Shown here: in pieces, positions 3,226-23,699 of the stretch | Layout: the number at the start of each line of letters is the position of its first letter | Numbering within the stretch: position 1 is the first letter of the stretch | Sequence record: NC_028943.1 | DNA: 29,237 bases | Source: Escherichia phage pro483 | Strand: one strand, 5' to 3' | Notes under the pieces: generated by a model | What the model was told of the DNA's origin: nothing | What the model saw: only the letters and a program-made list of their open reading frames with translations | Database searches by the model: none | Position numbers and translations under genes: made by a program

Positions 3226-3449
3226 TGCCGGACAACGTAGATTTTATTCAGGAACAACAGGCTGAATTACTGGAGCGCCAGATTAACGCGGCAAGGGTAA
3301 AGCATTGCGGTGTTTCTGCGCTGGTTTGCGAAGAGTGTGACGCGCCAATACCTGCTGCCCGTCGTGCGGCTTATCCGTCAGCCACGCGTTGTGTTTCCTG
3401 CCAGTCAGTCTTTGAAGCAAAAAACAAACATTACCGGAGAACGTCATGA
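3225..3449 (+). CDS. TraR/DksA-family C4 zinc-finger protein (P2 orf82 position)
   Basis: 74 aa with CxxC...CxxC (CEECDAP...CVSCQ) near the C-terminus, typical of TraR/DksA-like zinc fingers. Confidence 0.7.
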   Translation: MPDNVDFIQEQQAELLERQINAARVKHCGVSALVCEECDAPIPAARRAAYPSATRCVSCQSVFEAKNKHYRRTS

Positions 3450-3721
3450 GTATTCGTATTGAAATTGGCGAACGTTATGTCGTTACCAGTGACAGCTTTC
3501 AGTTTATTCTCCACGAGAAAAAGAGAGCTGAAAGCGGTAAAAACGCCGGTCAGGAATGGCTGGCGGTGGTTGGTTATTACCCGAAATTAGGCCAGCTCGT
3601 TTCCGGCCTGATGCATCACGATATTCTGACCGGAAGCGCAAAATCTTTTGCTGATTTAAACGCGCAGGTTGAGCAACTCAGCAAGCGTTGTTCAGAGGCT
3701 TTTGGCTCATATGGCCGTTAA
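3446..3721 (+). CDS. Hypothetical protein (P2 orf83 position)
   Basis: 91-aa ORF overlapping the upstream stop and the gene A start. Confidence 0.6.
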   Translation: MSIRIEIGERYVVTSDSFQFILHEKKRAESGKNAGQEWLAVVGYYPKLGQLVSGLMHHDILTGSAKSFADLNAQVEQLSKRCSEAFGSYGR

Positions 3722-5882
3722 AGCCTCCGGGCGTTTTGTCCCTCCGTCAGCATTTACCGCAGGCACCGGTAAGGCGTTTACCGGTGCTTATGCATGGAAC
3801 GCGCCACGCGAGGCTGTCGGGCGCGAAAGACCTCTTACACGTGACGAGATGCGTCAGGTGCAAGGTGTTTTATCCACGATTAACCGCCTGCCTTACTTTT
3901 TGCGCTCGCTGTTTACTTCACGCTATGACTACATCCGGCGCAATAAAAGCCCGGTGCACGGGTTTTATTTCCTCACATCTACTTTTCAGCGTCGTTTATG
4001 GCCGCGCATTGAGCGTGTGAATCAGCGCCATGAAATGAACACCGACGCGTCGTTGCTGTTTCTGGCAGAGCGTGACCACTATGCGCGCCTGCCGGGAATG
4101 AATGACAAGGAGCTGAAAAAGTTTGCCGCCCGTATCTCATCGCAGCTTTTCATGATGTATGAGGAACTCTGCGATGCATGGGTTGATGCGCATGGTGAAA
4201 AAGAATCGCTGTTTACGGATGAGGCGCAGGCTCACCTGTATGGTCATGTTGCTGGCGCTGCACGTGCTTTCAATATTTCCCCGCTCTACTGGAAAAAATA
4301 CCGTAAAGGACAGATGACCACGAGGCAGGCATATTCTGCCATTGCCCGTCTGTTTAACGATGAGTGGTGGACTCATCAGCTTAAAGGCCAGCGTATGCGC
4401 TGGCATGAAGCGTTACTGATAGCTGTCGGGGAGGTCAATAAAGACCGTTCTCCTTATGCCAGTAAACACGCCATTCGTGATGTGCGTGCGCGCCGCCAGG
4501 CAAATCTGGAATTTCTTAAATCGTGTGACCTTGAAAACAGGGAAACCGGCGAGCGCATCGACCTTATCAGTAAGGTGATGGGCAGTATTTCTAATCCTGA
4601 AATTCGCCGGATGGAGCTGATGAACACCATTGCCGGTATTGAGCGTTACGCCGCTGCAGAGGGTGATGTGGGGATGTTTATCACGCTGACCGCGCCGTCA
4701 AAGTATCACCCGACACGTCAGGTAGGAAAAGGCGAAAGTAAAACCGTGCAGCTTAATCACGGCTGGAACGATGAGGCATTTAATCCAAAGGATGCGCAGC
4801 GTTATCTCTGCCGTATCTGGAGCCTGATGCGCACGGCATTCAAGGATAATGATTTACAGGTCTACGGTTTGCGTGTCGTCGAGCCACACCACGACGGAAC
4901 GCCGCACTGGCATATGATGCTTTTTTGTAATTCACGCCAGCGTAACCAGATTATCGAAATCATGCGTCGCTATGCGCTCAAAGAGGATGGCGACGAAAGA
5001 GGAGCCGCGCGAAACCGTTTTCAGGCAAAACACCTTAACCGGGGCGGTGCTGCGGGATATATCGCGAAATACATTTCAAAAAACATCGACGGCTATGCAC
5101 TGGATGGTCAGCTCGATAACGACACCGGCAGGCCGCTGAAAGACACTGCAGCGGCTGTTACCGCATGGGCGTCAACGTGGCGCATCCCGCAATTTAAAAC
5201 GGTTGGCCTGCCGACAATGGGGGCTTACCGTGAACTACGCAAATTGCCGCGCGGCGTCAGCATTGCTGATGAGTTTGACGAGCGCGTCGAGGCTGCACGC
5301 GCCGCCGCAGACAGTGGTGATTTTGCGTTGTATATCAGCGCGCAGGGTGGGGCAAATGTCCCGCGCGATTGTCAGACTGTCAGAGTCGCCCGTAGCCCGT
5401 CGGATGAAGTTAACGAGTACGAGGAAGAAGTCGAGAGAGTGGTCGGCATTTACGCGCCGCATCTCGGCGCGCGTCATATTCATATCACCAGAACGACGGA
5501 CTGGCGCATTGTTCCGAAAGTGCCGGTCGTTGAGCCTTTGACTTTAAAAAGCGGCATCGCCGCGCCTCGGAGTCCTGTCAATAACTGTGGAAAGTTCACC
5601 GGCGGTGACGTTCCGGTTATGCACCCTACACCGTCTGAGCATGCCGCAGCGGTGTTAAATCTGGTTGATAGTGGTGTTATCGGATGGGATGACCCGGAAG
5701 TTGTGACGGTGCTCAGGAGTGCATTAAAACATGGTGCACCGAGACCGAATTGGCAACAAAGAAACTGCGAACCATTAAAACCGTACCAGATAGCGCCATC
5801 AGGGCGGATGACAAAGGCTGAACGTTCGCAGATTCCACGCATCCATTTCGAGCTGGCACTAATTGGTAAAACCTATCAATAG
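3711..5882 (+). CDS. A: Replication initiation endonuclease A (rolling-circle nickase, P2 gpA)
   Basis: Start taken at ATG 3711 (MAVKASGRFVPP..., matching the remembered P2 A N-terminus); 723 aa, against about 761 aa remembered for P2 A; the 3' end abuts the AT-rich cargo. Confidence 0.9.
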   Translation: MAVKASGRFVPPSAFTAGTGKAFTGAYAWNAPREAVGRERPLTRDEMRQVQGVLSTINRLPYFLRSLFTSRYDYIRRNKSPVHGFYFLTSTFQRRLWPRIERVNQRHEMNTDASLLFLAERDHYARLPGMNDKELKKFAARISSQLFMMYEELCDAWVDAHGEKESLFTDEAQAHLYGHVAGAARAFNISPLYWKKYRKGQMTTRQAYSAIARLFNDEWWTHQLKGQRMRWHEALLIAVGEVNKDRSPYASKHAIRDVRARRQANLEFLKSCDLENRETGERIDLISKVMGSISNPEIRRMELMNTIAGIERYAAAEGDVGMFITLTAPSKYHPTRQVGKGESKTVQLNHGWNDEAFNPKDAQRYLCRIWSLMRTAFKDNDLQVYGLRVVEPHHDGTPHWHMMLFCNSRQRNQIIEIMRRYALKEDGDERGAARNRFQAKHLNRGGAAGYIAKYISKNIDGYALDGQLDNDTGRPLKDTAAAVTAWASTWRIPQFKTVGLPTMGAYRELRKLPRGVSIADEFDERVEAARAAADSGDFALYISAQGGANVPRDCQTVRVARSPSDEVNEYEEEVERVVGIYAPHLGARHIHITRTTDWRIVPKVPVVEPLTLKSGIAAPRSPVNNCGKFTGGDVPVMHPTPSEHAAAVLNLVDSGVIGWDDPEVVTVLRSALKHGAPRPNWQQRNCEPLKPYQIAPSGRMTKAERSQIPRIHFELALIGKTYQ

Positions 5883-17548: not shown

Positions 17549-18457
17549 ATGCCGATTATCGACCTGAACCAGCTACCCGCACCGGATGTGGTCGAGGAGC
17601 TGGACTTTGAAACCATTCTTGCCGAACGCAAGGCGACACTGATTTCCCTTTACCCGGAAGACCAGCAGGAGGCGGTTGCCCGTACCCTGACGCTGGAATC
17701 CGAGCCTCTCGTCAAACTGCTGGAGGAAAATGCTTATCGTGAGCTTATCTGGCGTCAGCGTGTGAATGAGGCCGCACGGGCGGTAATGCTGGCCTGTGCC
17801 GCCGGTAATGACCTTGATGTGATTGGTGCCAATTACAACACCACGCGCCTGATTATCACCCCGGCAGATGATTCGACCATCCCGCCGACACCGGCAGTGA
17901 TGGAGTCTGACACCGATTATCGTCTGCGTATTCAGCAGGCGTTTGAGGGCTTAAGCGTCGCCGGGTCGGTGGGAGCCTATCAGTATCATGGTCGCAGTGC
18001 CGACGGGCGTGTCGCGGATATCTCTGTCACCAGTCCGTCTCCGGCCTGCGTCACTATCTCTGTGCTGTCACGTGAAAATAACGGCGTCGCATCCGAAGAC
18101 CTGCTGGCCGTGGTGCGTAACGCCCTTAATGGCGAGGACGTCAGGCCGGTGGCCGACCGCGTGACCGTGCAGTCTGCCGCCATCGTTGAATACCAGATAA
18201 ACGCCACGCTTTACCTTTACCCTGGTCCCGAAAGCGAACCCATCCGCGCTGCTGCCGTGAAAAAGCTGGAAGCGTACATCACGGCACAGCACCGGCTGGG
18301 GCGCGACATCCGTCTGTCTGCCATTTATGCCGCGTTGCATGTGGAAGGCGTGCAGCGTGTCGAGCTGGCCGCACCTCTGGCTGACATTGTGCTCAACAGT
18401 ACGCAGGCGTCTTTCTGCACCGAATACAGCGTCGTGACCGGAGGCTCGGATGAGTGA
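17549..18457 (+). CDS. J: Baseplate assembly protein J
   Basis: 302 aa, same as P2 J. Confidence 0.9.
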   Translation: MPIIDLNQLPAPDVVEELDFETILAERKATLISLYPEDQQEAVARTLTLESEPLVKLLEENAYRELIWRQRVNEAARAVMLACAAGNDLDVIGANYNTTRLIITPADDSTIPPTPAVMESDTDYRLRIQQAFEGLSVAGSVGAYQYHGRSADGRVADISVTSPSPACVTISVLSRENNGVASEDLLAVVRNALNGEDVRPVADRVTVQSAAIVEYQINATLYLYPGPESEPIRAAAVKKLEAYITAQHRLGRDIRLSAIYAALHVEGVQRVELAAPLADIVLNSTQASFCTEYSVVTGGSDE

Positions 18458-19061
18458 TTCGCGCCTGCTGCCGACCGGCTCATCACCGCTTGAAGTTGCC
18501 GCCGCAAAAGCCTGTGCGGAAATTGAAAAAACGCCGGTCAGTATTCGTGAGCTGTGGAACCCGGACACCTGCCCGGCAAATCTGCTGCCGTGGCTGGCGT
18601 GGTCATTTTCGGTTGACCGCTGGGATGATAAGTGGCCGGAAGCGACAAAACGCGCTGTTATCCGCGATGCGTATTTCATTCACTGCCATAAGGGCACTAT
18701 TGGTGCGATTCGCCGTGTGGTGGAGCCGCTCGGCTATCTGATTGAGGTGAGGGAGTGGTGGCAGCTCAACGAGGAGCCGGGGACGTTCCGCATCGTTGTT
18801 GGCGTGCTTGAGCAGGGTATTACCGAGGAAATGTATCAGGAGCTGGAGCGTCTCGTTGCTGATGCAAAACCTGCAAGCCGCCATCTGACGGGACTGGCTA
18901 TCAGTTTAAGTACAACCGGCAACATTTTTGCCGGTGCGGGATGCTATCACGGCGACGCCCTGACGGTTTATCCCTACACCCCGGAGGCCATTATTGTCGG
19001 AGGGGATTATTTCCCGGCCTCGGCCATTCATTTAATTGATAACCTGAGAGTAAACGCATGA
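18450..19061 (+). CDS. I: Baseplate / tail protein I
   Basis: 203 aa (P2 I is about 176 aa from memory); overlaps J and H in the operon. Confidence 0.85.
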   Translation: MSDSRLLPTGSSPLEVAAAKACAEIEKTPVSIRELWNPDTCPANLLPWLAWSFSVDRWDDKWPEATKRAVIRDAYFIHCHKGTIGAIRRVVEPLGYLIEVREWWQLNEEPGTFRIVVGVLEQGITEEMYQELERLVADAKPASRHLTGLAISLSTTGNIFAGAGCYHGDALTVYPYTPEAIIVGGDYFPASAIHLIDNLRVNA

Positions 19062-20257
19062 CAGTGAAATACTACGCCATTCTGACTAATCAGGGCGCGG
19101 CACGGCTGGCTAACGCGACGATGCTCGGCAGTAAGCTGAATCTGACGCAAATGGCCGTTGGTGATGCAAATGGTGTGTTACCAACACCAGACCCTGCACA
19201 AACAAAACTGATTAACCAGAAACGCATTGCACCGCTGAATCTTCTGAGTGTTGACCCGAATAACCAGAGCCAGATTATTGCGGAGCAAATCATCCCTGAG
19301 AACGAGGGCGGATTCTGGATCCGTGAGATTGGGCTTTATGATGATGAAGGCGTACTCATTGCGGTGGCAAACTGCCCGGAAACGTACAAACCGCAGTTGC
19401 AGGAAGGAAGCGGTCGTACCCAGACTATCCGCATGATTCTGGTTGTCTCGAATACCGAAGCCATCACGCTGAAAATCGATCCGTCGGTGGTACTGGCGAC
19501 CCGTAAATACGTGGATGATGAAGTCCTGGAATTAAGGCTGTATGTGGATGACCAGATGAGAAACCACATTGCCGCACAGGATCCTCATACCCAGTATGCA
19601 CAGAAACATAATCCGACATTTACCGGAGAACCAAAAGCGCCGACGCCTGCCGCAGGAAATAACACCACGCGGATTGCGACCACTGCGTTTGTTCAGGCCG
19701 CTATTACCGCTCTGATTAACGGTGCGCCAGCCACGCTGGACACACTGAAAGAAATTGCCGCAGCCATTAACAATGACCCGAAATTCAGCACCACCATTAA
19801 CAATGCGCTGTCAGGTAAGCAGCCACTGGATGAGACGCTGACTCATTTGAGCGGAAAGGATGTTGCCGGCCTTCTCGCATACCTTGGTTTGGGAGAAGCG
19901 GCAAAACGGGATGTAGGGACAGGGGAAAATCAGATACCGGACATGGCCTCGTTTGCCAGTGGTGATGGATGGATGAAATTACCCAACGGGAAAATCCTGC
20001 AATATGGTCGTGGTGCGGTTACGCCGACATTATCGACGCAAACAATGAGAATTACATTCAGCATCCCTTTTCCTAAAAAAGTGGACTGCGCCATGCTTAC
20101 TCATTCTGGTGATGGTGGTGCGCCTTTAGGTGCTGGGCGGGGATTCGTGATGACCGCAGAAGGCCCAACATTAACCGGTTTTAATTCTGCTTACAGAACG
20201 TCATCAACCAGCGACACGGTATCGATGAATTACAGTTGGTGGGCTGTTGGTGAGTAA
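19058..20257 (+). CDS. H: Tail fibre protein H (constant N-terminal part plus currently expressed variable C-terminal module Hv)
   Basis: 399 aa; N-terminus MTVKYYAILTNQGAARLANA... is P2 H-like; a 26-bp recombination site sits in-frame at codons LAYLGLGE (19872-19897). Confidence 0.9.
   Translation: MTVKYYAILTNQGAARLANATMLGSKLNLTQMAVGDANGVLPTPDPAQTKLINQKRIAPLNLLSVDPNNQSQIIAEQIIPENEGGFWIREIGLYDDEGVLIAVANCPETYKPQLQEGSGRTQTIRMILVVSNTEAITLKIDPSVVLATRKYVDDEVLELRLYVDDQMRNHIAAQDPHTQYAQKHNPTFTGEPKAPTPAAGNNTTRIATTAFVQAAITALINGAPATLDTLKEIAAAINNDPKFSTTINNALSGKQPLDETLTHLSGKDVAGLLAYLGLGEAAKRDVGTGENQIPDMASFASGDGWMKLPNGKILQYGRGAVTPTLSTQTMRITFSIPFPKKVDCAMLTHSGDGGAPLGAGRGFVMTAEGPTLTGFNSAYRTSSTSDTVSMNYSWWAVGE
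19872..19897. repeat. Left crossover site for the DNA invertase (gix/hix/cix-like), TTCTCGCATACC-TT-GGTTTGGGAGAA
   Basis: 26-bp pseudo-palindrome resembling hixL/gix sites (TTxTC..AAACC / GGTTT..GAxAA); inverted relative to the site at 21775-21800 with the GGTTTGGGAGAA half identical. Confidence 0.65.
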
Positions 20258-20277
20258 TTTTATTCAGGGTGATTTAT

Positions 20278-20721
20278 ATGAACGAATATGTTTATAGCGC
20301 AAGGCATAATGCTTTTTTCCCTGTGGATATGATTGATAAATATAAATCAGAGGGATGGGATTTATCAGACGCTAAGGAAGTAAATCAAAATATTATCAGT
20401 GAGTTTATGGCTGAACCGCCACAAGGAAAAATCCGTATTGCCGGAGATGATGGGCTGCCTGCGTGGGCAGATATTCCTCCACCCACGCATGAAGAGCTTA
20501 TTGAAATTACTGAATCAGAAAGACAGCTACTAATTAACCAGGCCAACGAATACATGAACAGTAAGCAATGGCCCGGTAAAGCCGCTATTGGTCGTCTGAA
20601 AGGTGAGGAACTGGCGCAATATAATTTGTGGCTGGATTATCTGGATGCACTGGAGCTGGTTGATACCTCCAGTGCACCAGATATTGAATGGCCTACGCCT
20701 CCGGCAGTTCAGGCCAGATGA
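20278..20721 (+). CDS. G: Tail fibre assembly chaperone G (orientation currently expressed)
   Basis: 147 aa from ATG 20278 (the ORF track starts at GTG 20269); C-terminus ...LWLDYLDALELVDTSSAPDIEWPTPP resembles the conserved tail-fibre-assembly C-terminal motif; AT-rich 5' half. Confidence 0.8.
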   Translation: MNEYVYSARHNAFFPVDMIDKYKSEGWDLSDAKEVNQNIISEFMAEPPQGKIRIAGDDGLPAWADIPPPTHEELIEITESERQLLINQANEYMNSKQWPGKAAIGRLKGEELAQYNLWLDYLDALELVDTSSAPDIEWPTPPAVQAR

Positions 20722-21295
20722 CATCCGGCGCGGTGCTGGTATCTGTTGCCGTCACCGCGTCAATGTAATCCAGCACAGCGTTAAGTCTGGTTGTTTCTGC
20801 CTGCGTCAACTTCCGTCCGGCCTGTAATTTCAGCTGAATCAGACTAATGGAAGCCATTGCTGCATCAATCAGTGACTGGCGCTGTGCTTCTGCCGCGTCT
20901 ACTGCGGCACTATGCTGTGCCTCAGTATCCGTCACCCATTTCTCACCATCCCATTTATCATATGGCGTTAACGGGGCGATAGTGGTTGTATTTTCAGGGT
21001 AATCACCCGGAGCTGTGATTTCTTTCGATTCTCCTGTTTCGGTGCTATAGATGATTTCACCGCGATGGTCTGGCACATATTCCCATGAGTTAAAATCTGC
21101 AGAACGGCAGATTGCATAACCAGCTTTGTATGCGCCTGGGGCATCTAAACAGGAATATGCCGGAATGCCGACACCAATAGCAAGATATTCAGTTGAGGCT
21201 GAAATATATTCCCAACTCATGACATCAAAGTTATAAACAGTAATTTCTCCTGCCATAGTGGCAATTAATTCACTGTTTAATTCTGCGTTATTCAT
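20693..21295 (-). CDS. Alternative tail fibre assembly chaperone G' (partner of Hv')
   Basis: 200 aa on the opposite strand; C-terminus ...LNAVLDYIDAVTATDTSTAPDVIWPELPEA shares the motif with G; converges tail-to-tail with G (29-bp overlap). Confidence 0.8.
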   Translation of the reverse strand: MNNAELNSELIATMAGEITVYNFDVMSWEYISASTEYLAIGVGIPAYSCLDAPGAYKAGYAICRSADFNSWEYVPDHRGEIIYSTETGESKEITAPGDYPENTTTIAPLTPYDKWDGEKWVTDTEAQHSAAVDAAEAQRQSLIDAAMASISLIQLKLQAGRKLTQAETTRLNAVLDYIDAVTATDTSTAPDVIWPELPEA

Positions 21296-21786
21296 TATGC
21301 AGCCCTCACAATATAGTTAAAAGCGACATTTCGTGGGCGTGTTTCATTCGCACCTGCAGGTTTAGTCGTTGCCGCAACAACACCACCCTCTGTAATAGCC
21401 GGGTTGGGAATTGGGTAATTATCGAAGTCAATGGCCGGAGACAGGGGCTTGATTTGTTTTAAAATCGTGGTGCCTGTAAAACTTTCCAGAGTCTGGTCGT
21501 TAGTTCGTGAAGTCCAGATTCCCCAATAGTGGTTATGACTGACAATCGCACCGTCCTGAAGCGTTAATAATCCCCTTCCGTTATCCACTCCACGCCCATC
21601 ATCCCAGCCACGAATAAACTCACCGCGTAAATCAGGCAATTTATTTGTCGGGTAAACCTTTGCCAGTTCCGGGTATTCTTCAGCAGAAAAAGCCGCCCCG
21701 TTGCATTTCAGCCAGCCTGTCGGCGGAGTGGCTGAAGGCCACGGAACAGGCACACCGACGGGTAATGCCGAACCTTCTCCCAAACC
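21295..21786 (-). CDS. Alternative tail-fibre C-terminal module Hv' (promoterless; fused to the H constant region only after inversion)
   Basis: ORF of 177 aa on the track, but the functional part starts at the crossover (codons GLGE at 21775-21786); contains a tail-collar-like motif (WLKCNGAAFSAEEYPELAKVY...LPDLRGEF); same codon phase as H across the shared GGTTTGGGAGAA. Confidence 0.7.
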   Translation of the reverse strand, partial: GLGEGSALPVGVPVPWPSATPPTGWLKCNGAAFSAEEYPELAKVYPTNKLPDLRGEFIRGWDDGRGVDNGRGLLTLQDGAIVSHNHYWGIWTSRTNDQTLESFTGTTILKQIKPLSPAIDFDNYPIPNPAITEGGVVAATTKPAGANETRPRNVAFNYIVRAA

Positions 21787-21800
21787 AACGTTTATGAAAA
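21775..21800. repeat. Right crossover site for the DNA invertase, TTCTCCCAAACC-AA-CGTTTATGAAAA
   Basis: Reverse complement TTTTCATAAACG-TT-GGTTTGGGAGAA shares the full right half with the left site; lies 56 bp upstream of the invertase start. Confidence 0.65.
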
Positions 21801-21855
21801 TGCAGAGATAACGGGTAACTGGCATCATCTCCGGTTTTTATTCAGGGGGATGCTC

Positions 21856-22449
21856 ATGCTTATTGGCTATGTACGCGTGTCAACAAATGACCAGAACACG
21901 GAATTGCAGCGTAACGCGCTGGAGTGCGCAGGATGTGAGCTGATTTTTGAGGATAAAATCAGCGGCACTAAGTCCGACCGACCGGGACTGAAAAAACTGC
22001 TCAGGACATTATCGGAGGGGGATACACTGGTGGTCTGGAAGCTGGACAGGCTGGGGCGTAATATGCGGCATCTGGTCATTCTGGTTGAGGAACTGCGCGA
22101 ACGCGGCGTTAATTTTCGCAGCCTGACGGATGCTATTGATACCAGCACGCCGATGGGGCGTTTTTTCTTTCATGTGATGGGTGCCCTGGCTGAAATGGAA
22201 CGAGAACTCATTGTCGAGCGGACTCGGGCCGGGCTGGAAGCGGCCAGAGCCAAAGGTCGTATTGGTGGCAGACGTCCTAAACTCTCCACGAGTGAGTGGG
22301 AGCAGGCCGGGCGTTTGCTGGCTGCAGGGGAGTCACGTCAACGCGTGGCACTGATTTTTGATATTGGTCTGTCCACGCTCTATAAAAAATTCCCCTCATC
22401 AGCGACAAAGAATAAATTGTGTCATCCCTTAACCAACCGGGACAAATAG
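21856..22449 (+). CDS. Serine DNA invertase (Gin/Pin/Hin/Cin family)
   Basis: N-terminus MLIGYVRVSTNDQNTELQRNAL... with catalytic serine context and C-terminal HTH, closely resembling Gin/Pin; start at ATG 21856 (GGGGGA Shine-Dalgarno spacing fits better than ATG 21850). Confidence 0.9.
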   Translation: MLIGYVRVSTNDQNTELQRNALECAGCELIFEDKISGTKSDRPGLKKLLRTLSEGDTLVVWKLDRLGRNMRHLVILVEELRERGVNFRSLTDAIDTSTPMGRFFFHVMGALAEMERELIVERTRAGLEAARAKGRIGGRRPKLSTSEWEQAGRLLAAGESRQRVALIFDIGLSTLYKKFPSSATKNKLCHPLTNRDK

Positions 22450-22508
22450 CCTGACATCTCCGGCACAACTGAAAATACCACTCACCCATTAACCACGGAG
22501 TTAAACGG
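22450..22508 (+). promoter_or_regulatory. Intergenic region upstream of FI (expected late promoter)
   Basis: Position only; ACGGAG Shine-Dalgarno at 22495-22500; no motif confidently recognised. Confidence 0.35.
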
Positions 22509-23699
22509 ATGAGTGACTATCATCACGGCGTGCAGGTGCTGGAGATTAACGACGGCACCCGCGTCATTTCCACCGTATCCACTGCCATTGTCGGCATGGT
22601 CTGCACGGCCAGCGATGCGGATGCGGAAACCTTCCCCCTCAATAAACCTGTGCTGATTACCAATGTGCAGAGCGCAATTGCAAAGGCCGGTAAAAAAGGC
22701 ACTCTGGCGGCATCGTTGCAGGCCATCGCCGACCAGTCAAAACCGGTCACAGTTGTCGTGCGTGTGGAAGACGGCACCGGCGACGACGAGGAAACGAAAC
22801 TCGCGCAGACCGTTTCCAATATCATCGGCACCACCGACGAAAACGGTCAGTACACCGGACTGAAAGCCCTGCTGGCGGCAGAGTCGGTAACCGGTGTTAA
22901 ACCGCGTATTCTCGGAGTGCCGGGACTGGACACCAAAGAGGTGGCTGTTGCACTGGCATCAGTCTGTCAGAAGCTGCGCGCTTTCGGGTATATCAGCGCA
23001 TGGGGCTGTAAAACCATTTCCGAGGTGAAAGCCTACCGTCAGAATTTCAGCCAGCGTGAGCTGATGGTCATCTGGCCGGATTTCCTCGCATGGGATACGG
23101 TCACGAGTACCACCGCCACCGCGTATGCCACTGCCCGTGCGCTGGGACTGCGTGCCAAAATCGACCAGGAGCAGGGCTGGCATAAAACGCTGTCCAACGT
23201 CGGGGTAAACGGTGTTACCGGCATCAGCGCATCTGTATTCTGGGATTTGCAGGAGTCCGGCACCGATGCTGACCTGCTGAACGAGTCAGGCGTCACAACG
23301 CTGATTCGTCGTGACGGTTTCCGCTTCTGGGGTAACCGTACCTGCTCTGATGACCCGCTGTTCCTCTTTGAAAACTACACCCGCACCGCGCAGGTGCTGG
23401 CCGACACGATGGCTGAGGCGCACATGTGGGCGGTGGACAAGCCCATCACCGCAACGCTGATTCGCGACATCGTTGACGGCATCAATGCCAAATTCCGTGA
23501 GCTGAAAACAAACGGCTATATCGTGGATGCGACCTGCTGGTTTAGCGAAGAATCCAACGATGCGGAAACCCTCAAGGCCGGAAAACTGTATATCGACTAT
23601 GACTATACACCGGTGCCTCCTCTCGAAAACCTGACCCTGCGCCAGCGTATCACCGATAAATACCTGGCAAATCTGGTCACCTCGGTTAACAGCAATTAA
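22509..23699 (+). CDS. FI: Contractile tail sheath protein FI
   Basis: 396 aa, same as P2 FI. Confidence 0.95.
   Translation: MSDYHHGVQVLEINDGTRVISTVSTAIVGMVCTASDADAETFPLNKPVLITNVQSAIAKAGKKGTLAASLQAIADQSKPVTVVVRVEDGTGDDEETKLAQTVSNIIGTTDENGQYTGLKALLAAESVTGVKPRILGVPGLDTKEVAVALASVCQKLRAFGYISAWGCKTISEVKAYRQNFSQRELMVIWPDFLAWDTVTSTTATAYATARALGLRAKIDQEQGWHKTLSNVGVNGVTGISASVFWDLQESGTDADLLNESGVTTLIRRDGFRFWGNRTCSDDPLFLFENYTRTAQVLADTMAEAHMWAVDKPITATLIRDIVDGINAKFRELKTNGYIVDATCWFSEESNDAETLKAGKLYIDYDYTPVPPLENLTLRQRITDKYLANLVTSVNSN

Follow-up and report, generated by a model that had tools for sequence, protein, structure and literature searches.

Layout of the tail-fibre locus

The window analysed here is a 29,237-nucleotide stretch of Escherichia phage pro483 (NC_028943.1). 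Its tail-fibre gene H starts with a constant N-terminal part, Hc (19058..19885, plus strand), which carries the Pfam Phage_tail_fib N-terminal domain (E 8.9e-63), lies outside the invertible segment and would be expressed in both orientations. The segment itself is ~1.9 kb long (19885..21787, measured between the centres of its two sites). In the orientation found in the window Hc continues into Hv (19886..20257, plus strand), the expressed, gp53-like C-terminus, whose Gp53-like_C domain (Pfam, E 6e-12) spans residues 307-398 of the 399-aa H product. The tail-fibre assembly chaperone paired with Hv, G (20278..20721, plus strand; Pfam Caudo_TAP, E 2e-31), is annotated in relatives as a 147-aa tail fiber assembly protein and most likely starts at the ATG at 20278, which PGAP uses in those relatives.

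An opposed cassette lies on the minus strand. Hv' (21295..21786) encodes an alternative C-terminus with a Collar domain (Pfam, E 2.9e-15), and G' (20693..21295) encodes the alternative chaperone paired with it (Pfam Caudo_TAP, E 1.7e-32), silent in this orientation. The DNA of G' is 88% identical to e14 tfaE, and in flipped genomes the gene is found directly downstream of H'. The original prediction gave the same limits for Hv and Hv', recognized both chaperone genes and described the minus-strand ORF as promoterless. These limits are right, and within the window no promoter-like site was found upstream of Hv' on the minus strand. A promoter search covering both the invertase gene and Hv' gave nothing convincing, with matches no more numerous than in shuffled sequences. 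An Rfam scan of the window returned no matches.

Both crossover sites encode G-L-G-E in phase, in H on the plus strand (...AYLGLGEAAKRD) and in the minus-strand ORF (...NVGLGEGSALP), as had been claimed. Flipping the segment in silico produces an intact 439-aa H', in which Hv' is fused to Hc at G-L-G-E, followed by G'; the proposed exchange of both the H C-terminus and the chaperone is borne out. The fused 439-aa H' is present as a called gene in contig L007 and in strain TW14359. The N-terminal sequence is identical in the 399-aa and 439-aa products. Each of the two fusions gives an uninterrupted ORF with tail-fibre domains, and each occurs as a called gene in genomes. The arrangement is that of the Mu G segment: a constant N-terminus outside, and inside two opposed in-frame C-termini, each with its own chaperone.

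Crossover sites, invertase and presumed enhancer

The left, pixL-like site (19872..19897) reads TTCTCGCATACC-TT-GGTTTGGGAGAA on the plus strand, and the right site (21775..21800) reads TTCTCCCAAACC-AA-CGTTTATGAAAA, which is e14 pixR. Exchange is predicted at the central TT (19884-19885) and the central AA (21787-21788), respectively. The sequences and coordinates of the two inverted 26-bp sites were reproduced exactly, and this pair is the longest inverted repeat within 18900-22600 (30 nt, 80% complementary). A search with the degenerate Din-type consensus TTCTCNNAAACCWWGGTTTNNGAGAA, allowing ≤3 mismatches, found these two sites and no others across the 29-kb window, and found none in 100 shuffles. 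A chance inverted repeat is thereby ruled out. The significance belongs to the full 26-mers; the 12-nt half-site alone, with 2 mismatches allowed, was not significant.

The number of sites also bears on whether the locus could resemble a shufflon, in which crossover sites and fibre variants both exceed two, as in Min of p15B. The family includes systems of this kind, and they also occur in P2-like prophages, one of which, in EPEC, has three sites and four variants. The window contains only two consensus-like sites (≤3 mismatches) and two cassettes, and the natural variants found are two simple orientations. Membership of the Min/shufflon type, which has at least three crossover sites, was rejected on these grounds, and a multi-site system is extremely improbable.

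Comparison with known hix, gix, cix and pix sites placed both sites in the Din family. The right site agrees at 26/26 positions with published pixR (PMC3241671) and with the site adjoining pinE in MG1655; for the left site the agreement with e14 and published pixL is 23/26. The inner 16 nt of the right site are the repeat CCTTCTCCCAAACCAA, mapped experimentally for inversion of the e14 P segment by PinE (PMC12529663). The left site is identical in EC4115, TW14359, L007 and phage KC618326. On the plus strand the central dinucleotides are TT (left) and AA (right). Read along the direction of its own site, each is AA, as in hix, cix and pix, and the two sites are compatible for inversion. The pair shows the features of dix sites in the published table (PMC3241671): two 26-bp imperfect palindromes, in inverted orientation, matching the consensus and sharing central dinucleotides. 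The sites had been described as gix-like. Their Din-type, inverted 26-bp nature stands, but they differ from gix at 8-9 of 26 positions, and the gix assignment was dropped in favour of pix.

Adjoining the segment is the gene for a Pin-like, Din-family serine DNA invertase of 197 aa (21856..22449, plus strand; Pfam Resolvase, E 1.8e-52; HTH_7, E 4.5e-13), which starts at the ATG at 21856 and not at 21850. The protein shares 85% identity with PinE, 78% with Cin and 75% with Gin, and matches the Gin structure 3uj3 over residues 1-182 (E 1.6e-93). It has the architecture of a small serine recombinase, with an N-terminal catalytic domain and a C-terminal helix-turn-helix; the YVRVST motif with catalytic Ser9 aligns with Gin, Pin and Cin. 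R42/K46/K47/R50 and Q150/R153/L154 are all present, in a residue numbering that we take to be that of Hin minus 1, as for Gin. Fis/enhancer-dependent invertases are marked by Hin K47, K/R48 and K/R51 and by Q151, R154 and L155 (PMC3798978). These invertase-specific residues are conserved in the window protein as K46, K47 and R50 in basic helix B and Q150/R153/L154 in helix 1 of the DNA-binding domain. Where the host has other Pin-type invertases, these could flip the segment in trans.

A Fis-dependent recombinational enhancer is presumed to lie inside the 5' end of the invertase gene (21874..21945, plus strand). The candidate is the counterpart of the annotated P1 cin enhancer (cin nt 19-90), to which it is 80.6% identical. 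Fis-like 15-mers are found at 21878-21892 and 21926-21940 (gene nt 23-37 and 71-85), the first core ~98 bp from the centre of the right site. The two cores occupy the same positions in five invertase genes, 48 nt apart centre to centre, which agrees with the spacing in the hin enhancer (PMC3798978). Invariant third positions number 5/24 in the enhancer as against 16/110, no clear sign of extra conservation at synonymous sites, in a comparison of just four independent genes and over a region that is also coding. The window switch may depend on Fis and the enhancer, as its family does.

Both orientations in natural genomes

The orientations of the segment were compared between genomes. Contig L007 corresponds to the window flipped in silico (flip 19884-21788) with 1 mismatch in 8,594 bp, and it encodes an invertase protein identical to that of the window; contig L008 is also flipped. 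In O157:H7, flipping the equivalent segment of strain EC4115 yields the sequence of strain TW14359 over 6,501 bp, with 0 mismatches. The native orientation is represented by 68 complete E. coli genomes and the flipped one by 76. The natural inversions have their breakpoints inside the 26-bp sites, placeable only within the 15 bp that the sites share (TTGGTTTGGGAGAAG). A literature search for a report of inversion in the O157:H7 P2-like prophage found none.

The switch is evidently real and active, and near-identical relatives suggest that the window's own copy is active too. The alternative is a fossil: an inherited architecture in which this copy has an inactive invertase or enhancer and the orientations in databases are old fixed states. 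It could draw on the absence of a detectable invertase promoter, on relatives such as phage S164 with visibly decayed sites, and on a substitution in the enzyme: the residue adjoining the conserved DRLGR motif, S in Gin, Pin, Cin and the O157 copy, is N69 here. This substitution is probably harmless, because a contig that carries the allele is in the flipped state and because the corresponding residue of gamma-delta resolvase is D. L007, with the identical invertase, is a single base from the flipped window in 8.6 kb, EC4115 and TW14359 differ by the flip alone, and the ~1:1 split of orientations (68:76) among close relatives suits frequent flipping. In addition, the sites, the catalytic serine and all signature residues are intact. 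A fossil switch is very unlikely.

The perfect 15-bp inverted repeat common to both sites could also be taken to mean that the segment is inverted by general (RecA-type) homologous recombination and not by the invertase. A repeat of 15 bp is far too short for efficient RecA recombination, and a near 1:1 distribution among near-clonal strains needs a high rate. The repeats are moreover bona fide pix sites beside a Pin-type invertase, and the e14 segment stays in a single orientation in pinE and pinE pinQ mutants (PMC12529663). This route has hardly any probability.

It is highly probable, then, that the tail-fibre operon of this P2-like (Peduovirus) phage or prophage contains a functional site-specific inversion switch of the Pin type (Din family).

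Related switches, proposed mechanism and role

The switch is already known in kind: it is of the Pin/Gin/Cin type, with published examples in the e14 P segment, in Fels-2 and in two EPEC P2-like prophages. The closest relative is the P segment of e14, a cryptic prophage of E. coli K-12, which has the same in-frame G-L-G-E crossover and the same order (fibre-chaperone / chaperone'-fibre' / invertase) in a segment of 1.8 kb vs 1.9 kb here. The DNA of G', the Hv' flanks, the right site and the invertase is 82-88% identical between the two. The middle of Hv' (~21345-21582) differs from e14, and outside the site the Hv/G cassette of the window, which encodes the gp53-like tip, shows no relationship to stfP/tfaP. 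The short StfP of e14 belongs to a defective lambdoid remnant, whereas H, which houses the switch here, is a gene of a P2-type myovirus that looks complete.

In Mu (G segment, Gin, gix) and P1 (C segment, Cin, cix), as in the window, a fibre with a constant N-terminus is served by two oppositely oriented Sv-U cassettes between 26-bp sites; a Din invertase is encoded alongside, and its gene contains an enhancer near the 5' end (annotated in P1, presumed here). Their segments are larger (3 and 4.2 kb) and their cassettes different. Their sites depart from those of the window at 5-9 of the 26 positions, the centre of gix being GA and not AA, and P1, unlike the window, has its invertase on the opposite side of the segment with respect to S. 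Salmonella Hin/hix belongs to the same enzyme family and uses the invertasome mechanism, with 26-bp sites and a Fis enhancer located within the hin gene. The DNA that Hin inverts comprises a promoter and the hin gene itself, whereas the window invertase lies outside the segment and coding 3' ends are exchanged.

Among P2-like elements, Fels-2 (Fin) and the two EPEC E2348/69 prophages have an invertase adjoining an invertible fibre C-terminus, a likeness based on published layout; inversion was sequenced in EPEC cultures and between LT2 and LT7 for Fels-2. Cassettes differ among the invertible P2-like members. Deposited Peduovirus genomes also carry annotated invertases, e.g. KC618326, which has it in the same slot between G and FI. 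In P2 the gene order is H-G-terminator-fun(Z)-FI, and the stretch from the last 744 nt of H through U contains no invertase and no such crossover site. The original prediction of a Mu G-segment-style switch that P2 does not have therefore holds for the layout, for the occurrence of both orientations in isolates and for this stretch of P2, but such a switch is not unusual for P2-like phages.

By analogy with the family, the serine invertase (21856-22449) would bind the two 26-bp sites as dimers, and the sites would be synapsed on a Fis-bound enhancer in the first ~90 nt of the invertase's own gene. Both sites would be cut at the central dinucleotide (TT/AA), half of the complex rotated by 180 degrees and the ends religated, inverting the ~1.9-kb segment. 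Since both sites are in frame at the G-L-G-E codons, Hc (H residues 1-276) could join either Hv, giving the 399-aa fibre with a gp53-like tip followed by chaperone G, or Hv', giving the 439-aa fibre with a collar-domain tip followed by G'. The late V-W-J-I-H-G operon presumably expresses only the cassette that faces it, and a lysogen population would consequently be expected to release two kinds of virions. The two virions would probably differ in receptor specificity and host range, a form of bet-hedging, as suggested by the unrelated tips (Gp53-like_C vs Collar) and by the precedent of Mu and P1, where swapping the fibre tip changes adsorption specificity.

A real switch might instead serve mainly the lysogen, through host-level phase variation or defence in which Stf-like chimeras alter the cell surface and block phages. 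In e14, inversion of the homologous segment at the same repeats was reported in 2025 to inhibit T2 adsorption (PMC12529663), and the similarity of G', the Hv' flanks and the right site to tfaE/stfE noted above points the same way. The window, however, differs from e14 in having the look of a full P2-type genome: its head, tail, lysis and replication genes are all present, and the late operon is intact, with H encoding its baseplate-attached fibre. Late-gene expression is not expected in an uninduced lysogen. In an intact myovirus a swap of the fibre tip acts directly on adsorption specificity, as in Mu and P1. Host defence as the main role is quite unlikely, and host-range variation of the phage is the preferred reading. 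An additional benefit to the host is conceivable although improbable: the orientation of the switch in the lysogen, or its flipping in trans upon phage attack, may change susceptibility to unrelated phages. If so, one cassette would serve both phage host range and host defence.

In principle the switch offers nothing that Mu, P1, e14 and Fels-2 do not already show, and its value is mainly practical. It accounts for 1.9-kb inversion differences among near-clonal genomes, including O157:H7 outbreak strains, and explains breaks in short-read assemblies at the segment. It also lies behind two results of annotation pipelines: a fibre gene labelled as a pseudogene when the segment is in one of its orientations, and a silent cassette labelled as a free-standing 'phage tail protein'. 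In phage biology, and in phage therapy or typing, a lysate of such a P2-like phage would probably be a mixture of two adsorption specificities.

Locus layout and crossover sites

Taken as a whole, the window looks like a complete genome of the P2 type and shares about 97% identity with several Peduovirus phages; its invertible cassette sits between G and FI, at a position that varies. On the plus strand, a homologue of P2 gene I (18450-19061, Pfam Tail_P2_I) is followed by the tail-fibre gene H (19058-20257, 399 aa, with a Phage_tail_fib N-terminal domain and a Gp53-like_C tip) and the chaperone gene G (20278-20721, Caudo_TAP). The minus strand carries a second chaperone gene, G' (20693-21295, Caudo_TAP), and the promoterless alternative C-terminus Hv' (21295-21786, Collar domain). 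A serine recombinase gene (21856-22449, Resolvase and HTH_7) and the sheath gene FI (22509 onward, phage sheath domains) follow on the plus strand. In P2 the order is H, G, terminator, fun(Z), FI; the invertase is absent and no crossover-like site was found in the stretch covered, which starts 744 nt before the end of H and extends through U. The remark in the original prediction that P2 has no such switch is therefore right.

The two predicted 26-mers, TTCTCGCATACC-TT-GGTTTGGGAGAA at 19872-19897 (left) and TTCTCCCAAACC-AA-CGTTTATGAAAA at 21775-21800 (right), proved exact in sequence and position, and form the longest inverted repeat of the region (30 nt, 80% complementary). A 12-nt half-site with two mismatches allowed gave 3 matches against 2.4 expected and is statistically unremarkable alone. 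With up to 3 mismatches allowed, the Din-type consensus TTCTCNNAAACCWWGGTTTNNGAGAA matched only these two sites in the 29-kb window and none in 100 shuffles; a multi-site shufflon is excluded by this count. Both sites encode G-L-G-E in frame, as predicted: H on the plus strand reads ...AYLGLGEAAKRD at the left site, and the minus-strand ORF 21295-21828 reads ...NVGLGEGSALP at the right site.

The silent Hv' appears as a 177-aa ORF (21295-21828, minus strand) owing to an ATG at 21828, outside the invertible segment, and no promoter-like site was found upstream of it on that strand. In relatives the Hv' cassette is labelled as a free-standing "phage tail protein". A 16-nt direct repeat, TTTTATTCAGGG(T/G)GAT, lies directly 5' of the G and invertase start codons (20258-20273 and 21836-21851); the two genes may share it as a ribosome-binding region, or it may reflect how the cassette was put together.

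Both orientations in deposited genomes

The predicted flipped form, built in silico as the reverse complement of 19884-21788, encodes an intact H' of 439 aa, with G' after it. When the native and flipped forms of a 3.5-kb region were compared with complete E. coli genomes, collinear matches were found in 68 and 76 genomes respectively, each as a single piece (best 96.9% identity). O157:H7 strains EC4115 and TW14359, whose 26-bp sites are identical to those of the window, differ by exactly this flip over 6,501 bp, with 0 mismatches once flipped. In EC4115, PGAP calls H a pseudogene ("missing C-terminus") with a separate "gp53-like domain-containing protein" (L001 1559-2758, window 19058-20257); the native-orientation ORF is actually intact at 399 aa, and the split appears to be an artefact of annotation that depends on orientation.

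Contigs encoding exactly the invertase protein of the window were also looked up. One (L007, GCA_017528185.1) differs from the flipped window at a single base in 8,594 bp, and another (L008) is also flipped. A 253-kb contig (GCA_025522875.1) starts 2 nt past the right-site crossover dinucleotide (window 21790), a break typical of an assembler meeting a mixed-orientation culture. The sites have 15 bp in common, TTGGTTTGGGAGAAG, which include the central dinucleotide, and the breakpoint cannot be located more finely than this stretch.

These differing deposited genomes provide evidence from nature for inversion at these sites, and the segment was correctly interpreted as an invertible tail-fibre switch. 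A fossil switch that no longer inverts is unlikely, since the parts are intact and genomes that are nearly identical carry the segment in opposite orientations. RecA recombination over 15 bp is implausible, and inversion by that route is an implausible explanation here. Also against it, pin mutants of e14 are locked in one orientation (PMC12529663).

Site type, invertase and putative enhancer

Annotated Mu, P1 and e14 loci served as comparators. The right site matches the e14 site beside pinE in MG1655 at all 26 positions, and the left differs from the e14 left site at 3 positions. The published Din-family table (pixR, TTCTCCCAAACC AA CGTTTATGAAAA; pixL, TTCTCCCAAACC AA GGTTTTCGAGAG; PMC3241671) gives the same result, the right site being pixR and the left 3 off pixL, so the sites do align with known crossover sequences. 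The experimentally mapped e14 repeats, TTGGTTTGGGAGAAGG and CCTTCTCCCAAACCAA (PMC12529663), are inner parts of the pix sites. The gix (Mu) and cix (P1) sites differ from those of the window at 5-9 positions, and the central dinucleotide of gix is GA, unlike here. By sequence the sites are therefore assigned to the pix type, and the "gix-like" label of the original prediction is rejected.

Identity of the invertase is highest to PinE (85%), followed by Cin (78%) and Gin (75%), and its match to the Gin crystal structure has E 1.6e-93. The catalytic serine is present, as are two features that work on Hin found to be specific to Fis/enhancer-dependent invertases (PMC3798978): the basic residues of helix B, and a Q/R/L patch in helix 1 of the DNA-binding domain. 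Codon 69 (22060-22062), directly after the conserved DRLGR motif, encodes Asn; the residue is Ser in Gin, Cin, PinE and the O157 copy. This allele is found on at least 7 contigs, flipped wherever orientation was readable (L007 and L008). Because gamma-delta resolvase has D at the equivalent position and a same-allele contig is flipped, N69 is regarded as probably harmless. The promoter search identified none for the invertase. The gap that separates the right site from the start of the invertase gene contains a terminator-like hairpin with a T-run after it (21817-21836, plus strand), which could insulate the gene from late-operon read-through; terminator-like sites across the region number 11, against 3.4 in shuffles.

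The P1 record annotates an enhancer at cin nt 19-90, and the window equivalent (21874-21945) is 80.6% identical. Two Fis-like 15-mers within it (invertase gene nt 23-37 and 71-85) keep their positions in all five genes compared, those of the window, O157, e14, Mu and P1, with their centres 48 nt apart. The first core lies about 98 bp from the right-site centre; in the hin enhancer the Fis sites have "47 bp between their centers" and lie 99 bp from hix (PMC3798978). Since the stretch is also coding and third codon positions gave no clear excess constraint (5/24 in the enhancer vs 16/110), 21874-21945 is only consistent with a putative Fis-dependent enhancer.

Cassette exchange and the tail-fibre switch

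In another contig (L010, 492-520) and in phage S164, similarity to the window begins exactly at the right site (window 21772-21800), and the cassettes to its left are different or decayed. The crossover sites are therefore also boundaries of evolutionary cassette exchange. The inner halves of the S164 sites (L011 1395-1420 and 2746-2771) have diverged. The Hv'/G' cassette (window 20641-21796) has 93% DNA identity to stf/tfa of the lambdoid phage HK97, and part of the H constant region (19631-19832) matches that of P1 gene S at 72-76% identity; tail-fibre mosaicism here spans unrelated phage families. In KC618326 ("Escherichia phage P2" from O157:H43 T22; sites at 1395-1420 and 3256-3281) the two sites are exact inverses of each other (26/26), and the right one is not pixR-like. 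Its invertase CDS (3353-3847) is annotated at 495 nt vs 594 in the window and may be truncated or mis-started.

The pro483 switch is of a kind already known, with no departure from known systems; Mu, P1, e14 and Hin are textbook examples. Deposited Peduovirus genomes have "DNA invertase" annotated in the same slot. Two invertible loci were shown by sequencing in EPEC P2-like prophages (PMC4272514), and tail-fibre inversion adjoins fin in Fels-2 (PMC7953296). The literature search found no paper on exactly this O157-type prophage. A host-defence role has been reported for e14 (PMC12529663); a similar role may exist here, with low probability, and for an intact myovirus it would be secondary.

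The locus has two crossover sites, an enzyme of the invertase family and two in-frame fusions, and both of its orientations occur in nature. By analogy with the family, dimers of the invertase bound at both sites would synapse on the Fis-bound enhancer, the central dinucleotides would be cut, the complex rotated and the ends religated. The late V-operon would then read Hc-Hv-G or Hc-Hv'-G', where Hc is the constant part of H, and virions would carry a fibre tip of either the gp53-like or the collar type, directed at different receptors.
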